DNA of 63,500 bases, the filler included, from Collodictyon triciliatum (Eukaryota): the NCBI GenBank assembly GCA_043381765.1. It is 5 parts of 5 records of this genome, joined end to end, with 100 filler letters (N's around TTAATTAATTAA, not from the genome) between each part and the next. Parts side by side here need not be neighbours in the genome. Positions count along the whole stretch, not along the records: positions 33,397 to 51,210 come from JBHJMP010001538.1; 4 more parts are not named here. One strand, given 5' to 3'. Below are positions 39,869 through 60,449 of the stretch, piece after piece (position 1 is the stretch's first letter; the number at the start of each line of letters is the position of its first letter). A program made the translations under genes and the position numbers. The notes under the pieces were generated by a model, which was given only the letters and a program-made list of their open reading frames with translations, was not told the DNA's origin and did not search any database.

Positions 39869-42290
39869 GTTTTATTCAAAATAATTTTTTTTAGGACTTC
39901 AGCCAACACACACCCGCCCCAGCAGGTTGCAGTCCCCTCCACCTCAACATCGCAGCCCGCCATGGAACCCGCAATCCGAGCGACGGAGATATTGAAGGTA
40001 TGAACGTATTTATGTGGTTTATTGTGATTATGATTATGATTATGATTATTTAATTATTTACTTATTGAGAGGAAAATTGACGAAACAGTGTAGTTTTGAC
40101 GGTTTTTTTGTAAAAAAAAAAATGAGGAACTCCGTGACGATACCTGTCTATTTGTGAAGCACTTCCTTATGTCTTTGTGCAAGATCAAGTACTAATGCGT
40201 CTCGACTTTGACAGATTACGATGCACTCATCTCTCAAATTCAGAAATATAAGCACCTCATCCCCGACACCTTTGCCTATATCAAGAACTGGACAAATCCA
40301 TTTGATGTTCAGGATGAGAGCAAGCTTGTCCTTCTTGGTAAGGATCAAAATGTGGCAACAGCGCAGTCGCCCAGTCGCCCAGTCGCCCAGTCTTGCATTT
40401 TCATTTCTCATTTTTCTTAACATTTTAAGGTAATCGTGTGTACTAGGAATTTGATTTATTTGCTTCAACTTTTTTTTTTTTTATAGGTCGCCAGGAACAT
40501 TACCAGTTGGCCAAGCGCTTCAAAGCTGCATATCCGAATATCTTCGCCGACAAGTATGACACTGACATAGTTTTCTTCCGCGCCACTCAAGAGCAGCGGT
40601 AATACCCAGCTTACTAACAATACAACATTTCGGATTGAATAACCATTCACATTTTTTTCAAGTTAGTTATAAGAAGCATATTGATACCAATCACAATGTG
40701 TGTACATGAGAATATTAACATATATTGACTCATAGTGCGGTTCTATCTGCTGACTCATTCGGCTACGGTCTCTTCGAGAGACTTGGGTCCATAGGAAATG
40801 ATAACTATGAGCCCAGATTTATTCTTTCAGACACAGAGAGCCAGGACTACATTCTCAAATACTATGATAATTGCCCACTTTACACCGCCCTCGTTGATGA
40901 CAACGATGACACTCAAGTAAGCAAGAATATCCNNNNNNNNNNNNNNNNNNNNNNNNNNNNNNNNNNNNNNNNNNNNNNNNNNNNNNNNNNNCCCCCACGT
41001 ACTCCATTCTTCTCTATTACATATAACGACAATACATAGTACGCGTTTTTCTTTTGAATGGCTTATTTATATATCTTGTACCATAACCTACATCTGATAA
41101 TCCAACAATAGTATGAGTTCGACATGTATGAGAGCCTCGTTGTCCCCCCAATTGCGTCACGCCTTACAGCTATTCTCGGTGTTGGATCTGCATGGAACCT
41201 TACAACCAATGAGGCCTTAACCGCGTGGGCTGCCTGCCAATCAGAAGCCTCCTTGTTTGAAAAGTACGAATGGTGCTCGCTTTTCCGTCAAAGTGAAGTC
41301 GAACAACTGGAATATCTGGAAGGTATGAAACATTCCAAATGATGCGGTGCATACTCGGTTGATTTCTGGTAGCTCATTTACTTAATAATTACCATGTAGA
41401 CCTCGATGACTACTACTCAAAAGGCTACCCCTATGAGATCAACTATCGCATGACCGCCCCACTTCTTCAGGATATCTTCAATTCGATGAAGGATGCCATC
41501 AACCGCGAAACGAGACAAAAGGCCAACCTCCGCTTTGCCCATTCTAGCACCATCGTCTCCCTTCTTGTTCGACTTGTGAGTTATGCAAAAGATTACTATA
41601 TCTGATCATGTATGGAAAATATAATATATTGATTCATTGTAAAAACTTACTGATTCGTAGGAATTGTTTCATCGGTAGGCAATGACAAAAACTTTTTTTT
41701 TAAAATAAAATAAAATAATTAGGGTCTCTTCAAAGACGCTTACACACTGACCCACGACCTTCCTCAAAGCCGCATTGACGCTCGCGTGTGGCGCACAAGT
41801 GTCTTGTCCCCAATGGCAACAAACCTTGCCGCGATCTTATACGAGTGCCCTCGTAGTCCAGTCACCCGGCACTATATCAAGGTATTCATGGACATAAGAC
41901 AAAAGTGCTTCGCTCTTCTTCTTTCGCTATCTTTTCGAGATAAGGATGGTGTGCTTGGTTATTGGGCTGCAGATCCATAGCATTAAAACATGACGTATTT
42001 GATGAACCTCGTGAAATAGTATACAGATCAAGTATATTGCCAACGTCCGATTGTTAATAAACTATTCTTTTATGTACATCCCTCTCCTCTGTGGCTACAT
42101 GCAGTTCCTCGTGAATGAGAAGGAGTACATCGCGCAAGGGTGCGACTCGGTCTACTGTCCATTCGAACAGTTTGCCACAGCATACTCTGAGGCCATTAAC
42201 GACAACTTCGAAGAGGTCTGCGCACTCCCAGAGCCCAAGCACAAGAAGCCAGCCTCAAATGCCGTGCCCGTGACTCTCAATCTCCGCTAA
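39578..42290 (+). CDS. MINPP1: Multiple inositol polyphosphate phosphatase-like histidine acid phosphatase (branch 2), secreted/ER
   Basis: Signal peptide MARTAFSLAILAVAFCLAVAA; HLASKTPY; catalytic RHGTRNP (~39958-39978); LEYLEDLDDYYSKGY; LRFAHSST; WRTSVLSPMATNLAAILYEC; FLVNEK...CDSVYCP; stop 42288-42290. Confidence 0.9.
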
Positions 42291-42454
42291 GCGTATGCCA
42301 CAACCCCCGTCTCGTCCATTCCAACTACAGGGGAACCGACATCTTCGCCAGTTTCATAGCTATAAACACTGGTACTGGAATGGTCATACCCGGCTGTCTG
42401 CGATTGGAATTGAAACTGGAGCTTCCTCTACCAACAGATATTGTTTCATTTATC

Positions 42455-42898
42455 TTGTCTTCTTCTCTTCTTTTTCTCTTTTTCTCCTTTTCTTTGTTTT
42501 ACTTTGTTTAAGTTTGTTTCACTTTTTTCTTTTTCTTTTTCTATCTCTATCTCTATCTCTATCTCTATCTCTATCTCTATCTATCTCTTTCTTTTTCTCT
42601 TTCTTTTCTTTTTCTTTCTCTTTCTCTTTCTCTTTCTATTTCTATTTCTATTTCTATTTCTATTTCTCTTTTCTCTTTTGTTTTTTCTCCTTTTTTGATC
42701 TTTTCTTTTTCTTTTTTCTTTTTTCTTTTTCTTTTTTCTTTTCTTTTTTCTTTTCTTTTTTCTTTTCTTTTTTCTTTTTATTTTTTCTTTCTCTTTTATC
42801 TTTTGTTTTTTTCTCTTTTCTTTTTTGTTTTTTCTCTTTTCTTTTTTCTTTTTTCTTTTTTCTTTTTTCTTTTTTCTTTTTTCTTTTTTCTTTTCTTT
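42455..42898. repeat. Long polypyrimidine low-complexity tract including (CTATCT)n and (TTTTC)n
   Basis: Direct reading; between MINPP1 3' end and the Fanzor region. Confidence 0.85.
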
Positions 42899-43609
42899 GG
42901 TCTCATTCAGCCTGTAAATGGATAACCATCATTGCAAAGGTTGTGACGAACTTGGTTTTATCCCTTTCAGGACACTGCACTTTTTATACAACGAAAGTGT
43001 TCTCACATATAGCGGTTTATTGCACAGACAACCATCGAATTAAATCTGAATTGACAAAAGCAGGAGCTTTGATGAATCCAAGAAGCAACCCGAATGATAT
43101 AATAGAATGATTAGTATATAATAAGATTAAAAATACTTAATAATCTCATTCTATTCATATAATCAGCTTATATTTTATTTTCCATTTATGCAATATTATC
43201 AATATCATTAAAAAACTACAAACAATACCTTGCGTTGGCCCAGACAGAACCCACGCTATAAACCTGCCACCAAACATGCATATAAAAAAAAGCATATTAT
43301 CCACACTTGCGGCGGTAATCATATTGCTTGGGGCCGATATGTTGACTTTCAGTCTCAATGGCAAAACAGCCGTCCTTTCGAACTTGCCGAAACAGCTCTC
43401 AGCGTTTTGTCTCAAATCACTCATAAAAAAAACTTTGTGTGTCTGTTTGCCACAATGTGCACATTTTGAAAGACTCGGTAGATGCTTAATTTTACATAAT
43501 TGATTTTATGCAGTTTTTATTTTTATTAAATTGACAGATTGGTTACAGTTTTATTAAAATTGAAAACTCGGTAGTTTTCTAAAAGAAAAAGTAAAACAAA
43601 GACTTTCAG

Positions 43610-45508
43610 ATGAAGAAAAGAAAACGTCTTGAGTCTGAGAAACTAAAGTATGTAAAGCCACAGTATCGAAATGTGAAAACATCTCTTAAGTCGATTGTAA
43701 AGAATGCGGATGACTATTACAAAATCAACGATATGGTTTTATTGTGTCATAATTTGGTTACCCACACTTATCTGTTTGCAAGATGTTACATATTGAAATC
43801 AAAACAACTCCTAACAATCGATGAAATGGTTTTTTTTTTTTGTAAGCTTTAAAGGCAGTCGGAGTAGCTTCACAAGATAGACCACCAAGTTGAAAATCCA
43901 GATATGAGAGATGACATGATGACTTTTTATCTCAATGATTTTCGAATCCTTTTGTCCCAATAAGAACGCTTTCTGTTGTTTGGACTGCCTCATGTATTAC
44001 CTTACTTGGTGAAGCAAATGCTAACAGCTTATCATAATAACATTAAGGAGCACTTTGTAAGGAGGTTTCTGCGCTTTATAAATCAAACAGTTCCTAAAGA
44101 TGAGGATATGATGGAAGCTATTAAAAAGGCAGAGTTACGAAAGTGAAAAAAAAAGCCATCTTCATGAAACTCGACATACCGGAACAAGATAAAGGATGGG
44201 CTAAAATGCATTTGAATCGTATCATTCCCAGCGATATTGTAAATGGTATCGATTATGATATCAAAGCCAATCCAGATGAGTAAATTCCAAGTCTGATTTA
44301 CATGAATCGCATTTTTGAGGACAGTGGAACCAAACTACTACAACCAATCCCTGTAAGAACTAACAATATACCATGTCATGTTACTCCAGATACTGCACGT
44401 TTGATAGATCTATTAGTATCAACTGAAAAAGCATCATTACTGAAGAATATATCAGGATGCAAAGAGACCCTATGGAATGACTTCTTTGAAATAAAGAAGA
44501 GGGTCTTTCATCTAAGAGTCTACAATTTTAAATGCATGATACAAACAGACGGCTTGGCGGTGTCACTATTGTTTTAATAGTAAGGTTTATCAAATTCAAA
44601 ATTCCAATAAAATCAATAACCCCCCCCTCCCAAGTATATTTATATAGATGAACTTTCCGAAGAGCATTTATCTTGATTAGCGACAAAAAAAAATAGTTGT
44701 AGTGGACGCAGGCAAGTTTAATATGGTTTAGATGGTGGATGAGACAGGCAAGAAATTACGTTACACGGCACACCAAAGAAGACATGATAACAAATCTCTT
44801 TAAAGTTACAAAATTTTCTTGCGCGAGAAAAAAGAATAGTACAATGCTTCAGGGATATGCATTCCAACATATTCACAAAGTGCTATTTCTTTTGGTCACA
44901 TGACTTTTGAAGAGAATCAACAGTTTGAGACATCAAGAGTATCTTTAATCGATTTAGAGACATAATTGAGTAAACAAAATTCATGCACGGTCGAATCTGA
45001 AAAATTTCGAGAATATGTATCTATGAAATCGAAGTTACCAGATATAATTATTCAGATTTTATGAACACGTAACTTTTCGAAAGATGGGATGGAGACAGTA
45101 TGCTAATACAAAAAGAAGTGAACGATTGTTTATGGACCGAATCGAAAAGACATTTGGCAAGGATGTTGTACTGGCGTACGGAGACTGGAGCAGAAAAACT
45201 CTGATGAAACATTTTATGCCATCAATCGGAAGAGGATTGCGAAAAATACTATCCAAACGTTTTGAACCAGTTAGTGCAGATGAATTTAGAACCTCCAAGA
45301 TGTGTCACAACTGCGAAAAAGAACTGGAGTCTTTGACACTGAAAAGAAACTCAAAAAAATGTATAGATGTATCATATGTAAAGAATGCAATCATTCAGAA
45401 AGCAAACAAAGTGTATTTTCGACAAGGGACTTAAACAGCGCTAAAAATATACTCAAGAAAATTCTTTTAATCCTTCAAAATATGCCTACACCTTCCTCTA
45501 AAAAATAG
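43610..45508 (+). pseudogene. Decayed Fanzor1-type (eukaryotic TnpB-like) RNA-guided RuvC endonuclease gene
   Basis: Collinear fragments across frameshifts and stops: MKKRKR..KTSLKSIV; YHNNIKEHFVRRFLRFIN; YDIKANP..IYMNRIFE..QPIPVRTNNIP; IQTDGLAVSLLF; RuvC-I IVVVDAGK (D at 44705-07); LRYTAHQRR; FYEHVTFRKMGWRQY..RSE; VLAYGDWS; RuvC-II ADEFRTSKMCHNC (E at 45282-84); CKEC; RuvC-III RDLNSAKNI (D at 45428-30). In-frame stops e.g. 43961, 44281, 44729. Confidence 0.88.
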
Positions 45509-45627
45509 ACTGTCGGGTCTTTCCTGGCAGCCTTCACCACCACACAATCTTTGTGAAAAAAGTGTTGGGATCTTGTATACTTGCGGACCAGGTTTAATCA
45601 ATCTTTCGACTGGTATACTCTTACTAG
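45480..45627 (+). ncRNA. Candidate Fanzor omegaRNA scaffold / element right end
   Basis: Directly 3' of the Fanzor ORF: hairpin CTGTCGGG/CCTGGCAG (45510-45530, 8 bp with two G-U), hairpin CACAA/TTGTG (45543-45555) with imperfect extension, bulged stem GTAT..ACCAG/CTGGT-ATAC (45575-45618). Position matches known TnpB/Fanzor omegaRNA placement; boundaries are inferred. Confidence 0.45.
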
Positions 45628-46251
45628 TTTATATATAAAACGAAAAAATGAAAACGATGATTGCCACAATTGTGCGCGAGATTCCTTCACTGCGTAATTC
45701 ATCCAAACGGAATTGGAATTTCCACAAGAGTAATTCCACAAATGGAACAGCTGTCATTGTCACTTGAACGATCTCGGCCTGCTGCCAGCGAAGTGTCGGG
45801 AAAGGATGAAAACCAAAAATGTGGATGTGAGCAAGAAAAGGACAGCCCCGATACCTCTGCGATCTTTTTCGTTTGCAGCGCAGTCATTTCGGCATTCTCC
45901 TTCACTCTCTTAGATATCTGTTCAACCTTTCGTGGGCATTTCATTCATTTGCTTTTTCATTTATGTACTTGCCTAAACACATCGCAGTATGTTTTTCTTT
46001 ATGCTTGTCATATATACCACGCTCTTATTCTTTTTTTCTTCTTCTTCTAAGAAATGACACACCCAGATAACAGAGACCGCGGGTGACAAGAATGAAAGAA
46101 AAGATTCACGAAACTGTTTATGTTTTTGTTTTTGTTTTTTGTTTTTTGTTTTTGTTTTTGTTTTTTGTTTTTTGTTTTTTGTTTTTTGTTTTTTGTTTTT
46201 TGTTTTTTGTTTTTGTTTATGTTAATGATAATGATAATGATAATGATAATG

Positions 46252-53116: not shown

Positions 53117-53359
53117 TCCCCCGCCTCGAATGGTCTTGATGGCCTGTGGGAAGGTGGGGTTGGGTCAGCTCTGGGATGGAGTGCTACGGCGGAGTGGGCT
53201 ATGGGTGGCTGAGGCGTGCTGGCAACTGAGGCCTCGGCAGCGCGTGGAATAAAGGAAGAAAAGAAAAAAGGGGCGAGCAGTAGAAAATCAGAACATGAAA
53301 AGGCTTCGCTTGCAGAAAACAAGAAAAAAGAAAATGGCATAAACCACGCACTAAAAAGA

Positions 53360-53431
53360 AGCGAACGACCGGAATTGAACCGGCGACCATTTGATCTGCA
53401 GTCAAACGCTCTACCACTGAGCTACATCCGC
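53360..53431 (-). tRNA. trnC-GCA: tRNA-Cys (anticodon GCA), intronless
   Basis: Minus strand GCGGATGTAGCTCAGTGGTAGAGCGTTTGACTGCAGATCAAATGGTCGCCGGTTCAATTCCGGTCGTTCGCT: acceptor GCGGATG/CGTTCGC, anticodon stem TTTGA/TCAAA around CTGCAGA, GGTTCAATTCC T-loop, U73 discriminator, followed by TTTTT Pol III terminator. Confidence 0.96.
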
Positions 53432-54282
53432 TCCTTATTGTTCTGCTACTAATTACTGTATTTAATTAATTATTTGTTGATTTCTGGTTTATTTCGATTA
53501 GCACCTGCTTTGGTTGTTTTAATTGTTTGTTCTTTTGGCTTGATTACAATTCTGTCCATTTCTTACTTTCGTCATCCCTTTTTTCTTACTTTTCATCAAA
53601 TATTACTTTCCGATATTTTGTTACTAGTAATTTGTTGTCTCACACTTTCTGATTTGAGTTTAGTTTTTCTTCCTGATATAGCGCATAAAAATTCCATTTG
53701 TTGATTATATAGATAAAGTGTTTTTTCCCTTCATATTTTTCAGTTTGTGCGAGATGACGAGGCCATACGATACAGATTTAGCATATAATAATTTTCTTAA
53801 TCGTGCTATATGCTACATTACAATTATATTTTGGTACTCTTTCGCAGAGACATAGCGTGTTTCTTTCGTACTGTTCGAGCTGATAAAGTCCAAGAGACTG
53901 GTGCGACACACGCATGTCTTGTCTTACGGTGTGATTTGCTTCGTGTATTACGACCAGGCCACAATGGGCACAACCAAGCATTCCAGCCGAATTGAATCAT
54001 ACCCAGAATCCCAGGTCTTTGGATAAAAACGAATGCACTGGAAACACATCCACATTAGCGTCATTTGTTGTGGCTAAAATAATTGCTATCACGAAATGCA
54101 CCATTTGCCCGCCCAATCGCAAGGACAAAAAGTGCAATGGGTATATTTTCCGCATATGCACAAGTGACCGTTTCGGTGTCGCCCCAACCCGAGTGCATGG
54201 TCACATGGTCACAAGATCCAATCCAACTTCAGTCGCCCGAATCACAGAACCCAGACGCAGAAAAGCAGCCAGCACGAAGCCG

Positions 54283-57756: not shown

Positions 57757-58796
57757 GGGCGCAGGCGGCGGACGAGGGCGCGGAAGCGGCGGGGCGGCGG
57801 GGCCAGGTCGAAGCGCAGCAGGGCGAGGGTGTGGAGCTCGAGGGCGTTGAGGGCGGCGAGGGGCAGGGGCAGGGACGAGGCGCAGGCGGCGGCAAAGGCG
57901 CGGTTGGAGGGCGGGGTGTCGAGCAGGACCTTTGTGGCCACCAGCAGGCACCCCACAAACAGGCTGCGCACGTTGCCCGCCGCCACCGCCCCCCGCCGCT
58001 GCAGCCGCTGCAGGTACCCCAGCCCCAGCCACACCGCGCTGCCCGGCACCACCCCGCACCCCCGCAGCCCTGCCGCCGTCTGCCCCGCCGCCCCCGTCCC
58101 CAGCGCAGCGTCCAGCCCCGCCCCCTCTCCTTCCTCTTGCTCTTGCCCTTGCCCTTGCCCTTGCCCTTGCCCTTGCCCTTGCTCTTGCTCTTGCTCTTGC
58201 TCTCTGCCCGCCGCCAGCAGCTCCATCACCACCCGCTGCACGTGCTCCCCCAGCCGCACCCCGTCCTCCGCCTCGCTGTCGCTGTCGCTGTCCGTGTCCG
58301 CGTCCGTGTCTGTCTCTCCGTCGCTGCAGAAAGTCATCCCCTGCGACCGCCGCAGAGATCCCCCGCCCTGTGGCTGTGGCTGTGGCTGTGGCTGTGGCTG
58401 TGCGGCCAGCGGGGGCAGCTGCGTGCGTGTCGGCAGGCGGTGCCGCACAGGCGGGGTCTCGCTCGGGGGTGCGTGGCGCGCAGACGACAGCGACGAGGCG
58501 GACGCAGACGACGACGACGACGAGAATGACGACCACAGCGACGGCGACTCTGCGGTGAATGCGATTGTGGCTGTGGCTGTGGTTGTGGTTGTGGCTGTGG
58601 TTGAGGCGGTTGCCTTGAGCGGGGGCAGCTGTGTGGCAGGGCCATGTTTGCTGCGCATGTGTGAAAACAGATCCCCTGCGTTGAGTTTGCGGCGTGGGGG
58701 AGAGTTGTCGTCCGTATCATGTGGTTGTGGTTGTGGTTGTGGTTGTCCAGCGCGATGGCTGGGGTTGGACCGTGGTCGCGGCGTTCGAAGGCTCAT
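57757..58796 (-). CDS. PHO80/cyclin-U-like cyclin with low-complexity N-terminus; 3' end in N gap
   Basis: Cyclin box AVWLGLGYLQRLQRR..NVRSLFVGCLLVATKVLLDTPPSNRAFA..LNALELHTLALLRFDL; N-terminus with (QP)n, poly-T/S and (EQ/GQ)n tracts; no intron seen. Confidence 0.8.
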
Positions 58797-60449
58797 GCGA
58801 GACTATGTCTTTGGCTTTCCTCCTGGCGGATCGGTGGGCGTGCTTTGCAGATTCCGACTTGCAGCGACGTGGGGAGAGCCACTGTGTTCCTGTGTGGGTG
58901 GCGCGGAGCAAAAGGCTCAGAGTCGGCTTCGAAGGCAAACAATCTGGTTTCTTTTTCTTTTCTTTTTCCTTTTTTCTTTGCTGAGTGTGCTCCTTGATCC
59001 TGCGAGAGGAGTGAAAAGGGGGGCGGCTATGCGTGCTGACTCGATTGATCGATCTCTATGGGTCTGCTTCGATAAAATGGCGCTTGCCTCTCAAAACCAG
59101 ACTGTTCTCCATGATACACACACGAAACAGAAGCACGATTCCCAATAAATACACGGGAAAAAATTACTCTCCCTCGGTGTTTAAATAATGCAAGGGCGTG
59201 ACGCAACCAACCCGCACCCGAATATATCCCGCTCTTGAAAGAGAATTGACAAAAAAAAAATTTGTGAGAAACAGATAATTTGTGTGTTAGAGAAGTGAAG
59301 AGTGGATCTGCGGGCAGAAAACGAACCGAATTGCTTGGGTAGGAAGCCGTGTGGCTCTTGAGAGAGAACAATCACTTGACTTATTCGTTTCCAGAGGGTA
59401 TTTATATACCCATTAATCTAATTTTTTTTTTGTGACTGTTGTCGTTTACATCGTTATTCGCCGAATATTCCCAATGTGCCCGCGCTCCACTGGGAAACTG
59501 TCCATCTGATTCGATTTTTCCTCTCGAAAATGTGTAGTCCGAAGAAAAAGCACCGAACAGAAACACAAACACACCAAATAGCGCCATCATATTTTCGATA
59601 ATCGACAGAGAATTCTCACTATCCATCCAAATGTGGATAGACAAATTTCTAGCCACGGAAGTTTTCCACATTTGCTGATCGATTTCCGTTACAAGGTTGT
59701 CGTTCTTTCACACAAATAGCATATAATTCGTCACATGACGTATAATTGACGACATCTATCCGCATCAAGAGGAGCCGTTAAATCCAAAATCCTTATTTCA
59801 ATCTGGAAAAGCCATCTTTGTCACAGGGCTTTCCATAACAAGATTAAAATTTTCTGTTTTGGTCAACTACCACGTCACCAATAAATCAGAAACCTCCCTT
59901 ATTAATCGAAACATTTATAATGCACTCTTTGGGAAACCGATGGCAACACCCAATTCAAAATCAAAAATCTTGTTCCGGATACTGTGGTTGATTTTCGTGT
60001 TGATGTCATGCTAGCACAAATCTCAATTCAAAATATAACGATAAATAACAATTCTCAAAATATATTATTATACGCTTATAAATTTTATTAAGAAAATAAA
60101 CGGCGCTTATAACAATTTATATGTAAATTCCACAAATATAATGAATACATCAGGCTTTTGCGGAACACCTCTTCGCCAAAATAAATCAAACAGCAAACAG
60201 GGGACAAAAATCTCGAAAACCAGTTCTTCTACCAAACAAATATCTTTGAAAAGAGGCTACCACCAACACGATAACACCTCGAGAATGGGACTGTTTTATG
60301 TCATTTCCCTTTCTTTTTTTCTTTTTGACAGAAAACTCACAAGACCTCCGACAAAGTTTGGCAGCGGACGTGCTATGGAGACTAAGAGGCAAATCATTTA
60401 TGCATATAACCAATCCTAAATCAGCTCTACCTAAAAAAAAAAAAAAAAA

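Follow-up and report, generated by a model that had tools for sequence, protein, structure and literature searches.

Fanzor1 proteins are transposon-borne, RNA-guided DNA cutters of eukaryotes and giant viruses. Their presence in protists, fungi, and giant viruses, their rearranged RuvC domain, their NLS-like tails, and their links with transposons have already been described (PMC10432273, PMC10530073, bioRxiv 10.1101/2023.08.09.552727), and an association of autonomous Fanzor1 transposons with mariner/Tc1 elements has also been reported (Jiang et al. 2023, PMC10530073). In SpuFz1, the residues D383, N385, E541, and D606 coordinate magnesium ions, as described in PMC10432273. The hallmark of Fanzor1 given in PMC10530073 is an inert residue (Gly or Pro) at the position of the canonical RuvC-II Glu, together with another conserved Glu that lies closer to the zinc finger. 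The published signature of the group reads DPG x(120,280) E x6 [CH]xxC x(10,65) C x(5,50) RD x5 N (Yoon et al., bioRxiv 10.1101/2023.08.09.552727). According to the same preprint, Fanzor2 and the IS607 TnpB proteins have, like Fanzor1, a RuvC domain with a shifted Glu, a zinc finger, and a guide RNA from the 3' end.

Here we found that the plus strand of the window, the whole stretch of 63,500 nt that was analyzed, very probably contains at 43610-45508 a badly decayed and dead copy of a Fanzor1 gene, full-length, intronless, and colinear, which a DNA transposon of a multicopy family left in intergenic nuclear DNA of a eukaryote (Table 1). As the homology with Fanzor1 runs from end to end and the frame is broken, this copy is a relic of the family and not a working member. 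In a frameshift-aware alignment, the relic was reconstructed over residues 2 to 616 of an intact relative of 634 aa (P0003), which correspond to 43616-45536, and 253 of the 601 matched codons (42%) are identical. When P0003 was used as the tblastn query, residues 2 to 610 were colinear with 43616-45517 in frames 2, 1, 2, 3, and 2, with a summed E value of about 1e-67 and no intron-sized gap. A sequence-only reading of this DNA had described a broken ORF of about 1.9 kb, intronless amid intron-split genes, and the alignments bear this out; every motif that it quoted was also found in place, and the motif FRKMGWRQY is present in the relic as well. The basic N terminus would act as an NLS, judging from the description of Fanzor1 in PMC10530073.

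Table 1. Features of the Fanzor1 relic in the window and of related loci on other contigs
Feature	Position	Strand	Remark
Fanzor1 pseudogene	43610-45508	+	full length, intronless; guide homology extends to 45536 past one extra frameshift
MKKRKR, basic NLS-like N terminus	43610-43627	+	starts with ATG; relatives begin alike (MKRKK..., MKKKKKK...)
KTSLKSI	43676-43696	+	
Span with all ten in-frame stops	43850-44965	+	P0013-guided frameshift-aware alignment
In-frame stops, first five	TAA 43850, TAG 43865, TAA 43961, TGA 44144, TAA 44281	+	
In-frame stops, last five	TGA 44674, TAG 44729, TAA 44801, TAG 44837, TAA 44963	+	
NNIKEHF	within ORF 43964-44146	+	
Net frameshift at A-run	44142-44157	+	frame 2 to 1
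TDGLAVS	within ORF 44284-44577	+	
Decayed linker	44572-44695	+	several frameshift events and stops; net frame 1 to 2
RuvC-I, VVVDAGK	44696-44716	+	catalytic Asp 44705-44707; DPG changed to DAG
Net frameshift	45031-45050	+	frame 2 to 3; one base fewer at 45031 in other copies
GDWS	45180-45191	+	Gly at the canonical RuvC-II Glu position
DEFRTSKMCHNC	45279-45314	+	shifted catalytic Glu 45282-45284 and first zinc-finger CxxC; Glu aligned to SpuFz1 chain residue 935 = E541
DEFRTSK	45279-45299	+	
CHNC	45303-45314	+	
Net frameshift adjoining A-run	45334-45352	+	frame 3 to 2
Second half of zinc finger and RuvC-III	45368-45451	+	CIICKEC 45368-45388; RDLNSAKNI 45425-45451; catalytic Asp 45428-45430
Terminal stop TAG	45506-45508	+	
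Possible decayed remnant of 3' guide-RNA scaffold	45526-45641	+	covariance model R1, 7.9 bits; not significant
HTH + DDE_3 (Tc1/mariner/IS630-like) transposase of relatives	L085:1286-2317, L002:1276-2316, L083:1350-2252	-	upstream of Fanzor1
Small conserved basic ORF of relatives	L002:2378-2587, L001:1287-1499, L082:2431-2628, L083:2412-2594	+	60-70 aa; no Pfam family
3' RNA block of relatives	L001:3374-3505, L002:4462-4592, L085:4462-4591		about 130 nt; examples

P0003 is the best full-length HMMER match among 1.84 billion representative proteins (1500 matches at E<=1e-3, 360 at E<=1e-10), and it aligns end to end with SpuFz1 (E 9e-37). The longest open piece of the relic, 45048-45434 (128 aa), matched the Fz1 proteins of Parasitella parasitica (E 1.5e-11), Spizellomyces punctatus (6e-6), and Guillardia theta (2e-4) in a phmmer search of the PDB, which gave no other notable match. 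The N-terminal piece 43868-44146, with an X at one stop, matched GtFz1 (E 5.8e-5), and the RuvC-I piece and the piece 44284-44577 gave no significant PDB match. The similarity to characterized Fanzor1 proteins thus extends over the REC lobe as well as the RuvC lobe. A relic of Fanzor2 or of an IS607/IS605 TnpB would share the core of RuvC domain and zinc finger, and a Pfam search with eight fragments of the relic gave sub-threshold matches only, one of them to Cas12f1-like_TNB (E 0.017, 15.7 bits against a cut-off of 26.3). However, the three Fanzor1 chains are the only PDB chains matched at E<=0.001, no TnpB, Cas12, or Fanzor2 chain appeared even at E<=10, the N-terminal 330 residues align with the REC region of Fanzor1, the length is about 630 aa, and the Pfam matches of the 138 window ORFs include no serine-recombinase family. 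The chance that the relic is of this other origin is close to nil, and the Fanzor1 identity proposed from the sequence stands. Longer relatives were not found in a word-indexed protein search, and a "near" protein search returned one fragment of 82 aa. Downstream of RuvC-I, the relic and the fragment P0001 have an insertion of about 33 codons (about 44840-44940), which is absent from the other relatives.

The catalytic residues of SpuFz1 could be followed into the relic. In the chain 8gkh_P, residues 777, 779, 935, and 1000 are D, N, E, and D, at a constant offset of 394 from the residues D383, N385, E541, and D606 of PMC10432273, and D581 of P0003 corresponds to chain residue 1000 and hence to D606. 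Through P0003, D383, E541, and D606 fall on the Asp of RuvC-I, the shifted Glu, and the Asp of RuvC-III of the relic (Table 1), so all three catalytic acids survive, as had been claimed. The rearrangement of RuvC-II was also recognized correctly: the relic carries the hallmark described in PMC10530073, with Gly in GDWS and the shifted Glu in DEFRTSK, and in an alignment of 14 rows Y44 and W47 are invariant, G45 is nearly invariant, and E79, the shifted Glu, is invariant. The strict Fanzor1 signature misses the relic solely at DAG versus DPG, and the form with D.G matches read-through positions 367 to 615. Of the 101 relatives examined, 97 match the strict signature; 98 were matched by the loose (D.G) form, 96 of them with D-P-G at RuvC-I. 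A one-base change in a dead gene would explain the mismatch of the relic. As the relic differs by only 1 to 15% from its siblings, survival of the three catalytic codons is expected and is uninformative on function.

Guided by P0013, the frameshift-aware alignment contains 10 in-frame stops (five TAA, three TAG, and two TGA) and 6 frameshift events; guided by P0003, it contains 7 stops and 9 events, so that the number of events (6 to 9) depends on the guide. There are at least four net frame changes, and four are robust. The sequence-only reading had pointed to the poly-T run 43830-43841 as a possible frameshift. The run of 12 T's is present, but the same frame is found on both sides of it, followed by two in-frame stops, and it need not be taken as a net frameshift. 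It could be argued that the gene is really intact and that the breaks are assembly or homopolymer errors or stop codons read as sense, as three of the frame changes (44142-44157, about 44680-44695, and about 45352) coincide with A-runs or adjoin them. However, the ten in-frame stops are of all three kinds and lie away from homopolymers. Stops are absent from the neighboring LRR frame of 563 codons and from the split host domains, which indicates that no stop codon is frequently used as a sense codon here. Moreover, freshwater-metagenome contigs of two other runs (records 1 and 7) cover 44187-44337 and 44953-45103 with 0 differences and repeat TAA 44281, TAA 44963, and the frame state at 45031-45050, the last being seen in record 7 of run X2; these contigs may not be independent of the source sample. 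No reads of the raw-read run X4 matched the relic stretch. We consider it highly improbable that the gene is intact, and the copy is best read as a pseudogene.

Further copies of the family were seen in the freshwater-metagenome run X3, where 147 short contigs align to the stretch, 4 at 99% identity or more, 27 at 95 to 99%, 69 at 90 to 95%, and 47 below 90%. Between 43400 and about 45600, they fill 29 of 30 bins; none extends past 45633, and on the left the repeat reaches at least to the start of the compared stretch. This suggests that the repeat unit is little bigger than the Fanzor1 gene. Other metagenome copies have TTA at TGA 44144, GAA at TAA 44963, and one base missing at 45031, which is the unbroken state at these three lesions; the missing base is found in 2 contigs that account for the whole depth there (13.2 of 13.2). 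One run X3 copy has a private 1-base deletion at 45123. The many pieces of 85 to 99% identity, together with the sense codons at some lesions, indicate what appears to be a multicopy family, judged from short metagenome contigs that possibly represent several organisms rather than one genome. The run X3 copies also argue for past mobility of the element. Two fragment copies of NCBI origin, P0017 and P0155, come from contigs of about 0.5 kb and share 79% identity with the window. P0017 is frameshifted and shifts to the other frame of the window past MKHFM, and P0155 terminates a few residues beyond the match; as these last residues are unrelated, P0155 may be broken too. No intact member was seen among the metagenome and NCBI-sourced copies, each of which is a fragment or broken, and no second copy is present elsewhere within the window.

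The DNA around the relic is eukaryotic, with intron-split genes; the sequence-only reading had called the host a protist, and these genes show it to be a eukaryote. A Brahma-type SNF2 gene occupies 27.7-32.7 kb in many small exons, and each of the CAF1, ammonium transporter, PP2C, His_Phos_2, RasGAP, and DCX domains is divided among two to three ORFs. The relic is flanked by a histidine-phosphatase-like gene with its end near 42.29 kb and by an LRR gene beginning after 46.3 kb. A Pfam search with the 138 window ORFs of at least 75 aa gave 24 families, all of them cellular (CAF1, PP2C, ammonium transporter, RasGAP, LRR, and others), with no viral hallmark family among them; shorter or decayed genes would escape such a search. 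The sole Rfam or ARAGORN match in the window is a tRNA-Cys (GCA) at 53358-53432 on the minus strand. At 57800-59150, beside an N gap, there is an island of 65% G+C with low-complexity frames rich in Ala, Pro, Gly, and Arg, the rest of the window being about 35% G+C.

Intact relatives were collected by pattern scans, which found them in at least 492 of 597 metagenome-contig stretches among the matches listed and in 473 of 518 IMG/VR stretches; the best 80 of each were kept, giving 160 loci. Many of the IMG/VR contigs with relatives are named giant-virus MAGs, which supports the kinship with giant-virus copies that had been suggested. An ORF of at least 500 aa spans the match in 72 of the 80 viral loci and in 52 of the 80 metagenome loci; of the other metagenome loci, 16 are truncated by contig ends and 12 have short frames (197 to 395 aa) inside continuing contigs (L004, L005, L006, L008, L012, L022, L023, L047, L050, L053, L060, and L070). 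These 12 may be additional pseudogenes or eukaryotic copies with introns. One JGI/IMG record, P0002, is a 378-aa Fanzor1 fragment named '6-pyruvoyl-tetrahydropterin synthase', which looks like a misannotation. A FastTree tree was built from the read-through of the window and 101 distinct ORFs, after ORFs of less than 500 aa and exact duplicates had been dropped. It places the window on a long branch (1.18) in a starred clade of 11 rows, consisting of 6 metagenome rows, 4 viral rows, and the window. The highest identity of the window to any ORF in the tree is 42%, over 565 columns, and the best segment against IMG/VR or JGI contigs is 59% identical among the matches listed. The closest intact relatives, at 42% identity or less, lie mostly on giant-virus contigs. 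With so many relatives on such contigs, viral rows in its own clade, and an intronless gene in an intron-rich contig, the relic might be a piece of an endogenized giant virus rather than a host-resident transposon copy. Against this, host genes flank it on both sides, viral hallmark families are absent from the Pfam matches of the window, the unit repeated in run X3 barely exceeds the gene, and identity to any viral copy in the tree does not exceed 42%, with nothing closer in IMG/VR or JGI contigs among the matches listed. A viral insertion is therefore improbable, and a host-resident transposon copy is the reading that we retain.

The relatives carry additional components next to the Fanzor1 gene. 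A divergent upstream ORF has HTH and DDE_3 domains according to Pfam, with a match in 52 of the 160 loci, and in 9 loci a small basic ORF lies between the transposase and the start of Fanzor1 (Table 1). In eight members of the clade, a common 3' nucleotide block spans the stop codon and ends in ...GGTGTAAAA, the sequences downstream being unrelated. The block is retained even when the ORF of the relative ends earlier. RNAalifold predicts 22 pairs in it, 11 of which show compensatory changes. A covariance model of the block gave 103 matches at E<=0.01 in the loci L001 to L100. Of the 92 plus-strand matches, which are spread over 91 of the 100 loci, all except one directly follow the Fanzor1 gene, and the 11 inverted matches lie 0.7 to 2.2 kb 5' of the gene in all but one locus (L007). 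In the alignment, which was fitted to the model, 87.5% of the cells pair, compared to 48 to 59% when the alignment is slid; in the same model-fitted alignment, 16 of the 22 pairs changed on both sides, and none of 500 shuffles matched the observed values. This block is probably both the omegaRNA scaffold and the terminal repeat of these elements. A DDE_3 transposase and an omegaRNA-like end beside the Fanzor1 gene indicate that the relatives are Tc1/mariner-like transposons.

Such components were looked for in the window as well. The inverted repeats around the relic do not rise above those of shuffled sequence (the best pair matches at 12 of 14 bases, 42978-42991 versus 45551-45564; observed 1, shuffled mean 1.3), and no TSD was seen around the relic. 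The transposase and small-ORF proteins of the relatives matched the window at best with E 0.47, at unrelated places, and the 24 Pfam families of the 138 ORFs include no transposase. The flanking ORFs of the window have no matches in the 160 loci of the relatives, and similarity at the DNA level between the window and these loci is confined to coding parts. At the expected 3' place, the covariance model R1 scored at the level of noise (7.9 bits; E 4 over the whole window, E 0.028 over 451 nt only), the broader model R2 had no match at 45526-45641, and RNA folding of the 3' end of the relic gave z-scores of 0.12 and -1.43. Just upstream of the relic, an ORF of 116 codons on the minus strand (43155-43505) has no Pfam family and no homologue was found; as run X3 shows repeat-level depth over 43400-43553, this ORF may belong to the element and not to the host. 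Pyrimidine-rich microsatellites (TTTTC-like, CT/TC units) occupy about 650 nt at 42274-42925, about 0.7 kb 5' of the relic. With a frame that was lost many times and with no transposase, terminal repeats, or recognizable scaffold found, the window copy is inactive today.

The working ancestor would have encoded a protein of about 630 aa with a basic N-terminal tail, a large REC lobe, a split RuvC domain with the shifted Glu, and a zinc finger. By analogy with the characterized Fanzor1 proteins described in PMC10432273 and PMC10530073, this protein would have bound a guide RNA that was transcribed from the gene's own 3' end, and it would have cut DNA matching this RNA. The gene of the closest intact relatives is carried by a transposon of the Tc1/mariner-like type, which has a divergent DDE_3 transposase and, at its end, a conserved structured RNA. 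To assign this type to the window's own family means extrapolating, as no intact relative is more than 42% identical. It is conceivable, although doubtful, that the relic represents a separate, undescribed Fanzor1 lineage of a freshwater eukaryote, at 42% identity or less to the giant-virus/Tc1-mariner clade, with its own insertion of about 33 codons and a 3' RNA that the model of the relatives does not recognize, and that less decayed siblings may encode a nuclease that still works and has a guide RNA of its own. The relic is a trace of earlier activity of a Fanzor-bearing element in this genome and is itself ordinary and of little consequence; if its family has intact members, they would add another candidate editor. 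The structured 3' RNA of the giant-virus Tc1/mariner-Fanzor1 elements is well supported and may be the more useful result.

Among the known systems, the relic resembles in architecture the solved Fanzor1 proteins SpuFz1 (8GKH), Parasitella parasitica Fz1 (9CF0), and GtFz1 (9CER). Like them, it is colinear from the REC lobe to RuvC-III and has the order Asp, shifted Glu, and Asp, a Gly at the old RuvC-II site, and a CxxC...CxxC finger. It differs from them in being a pseudogene, in its distant sequence (fragment E values of 1.5e-11 to 2e-4), and in the DAG of its RuvC-I. The S. punctatus loci described in PMC10432273 have 30-nt IRs, whereas the relic is without such repeats. The mariner/Tc1 Fanzor1 transposons on giant-virus and metagenome contigs (such as L081, L083, and L085) belong to the same starred clade as the relic and share its basic N terminus and its motifs. 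They have, in addition, an open frame, a divergent DDE_3 transposase, inverted end copies, and a covarying 3' RNA, none of which was detected in the window. Fanzor2 and the IS607 TnpB proteins are smaller than the relic, lack the enlarged REC region, and are paired with a serine recombinase, whereas the relic aligns to Fanzor1 only.
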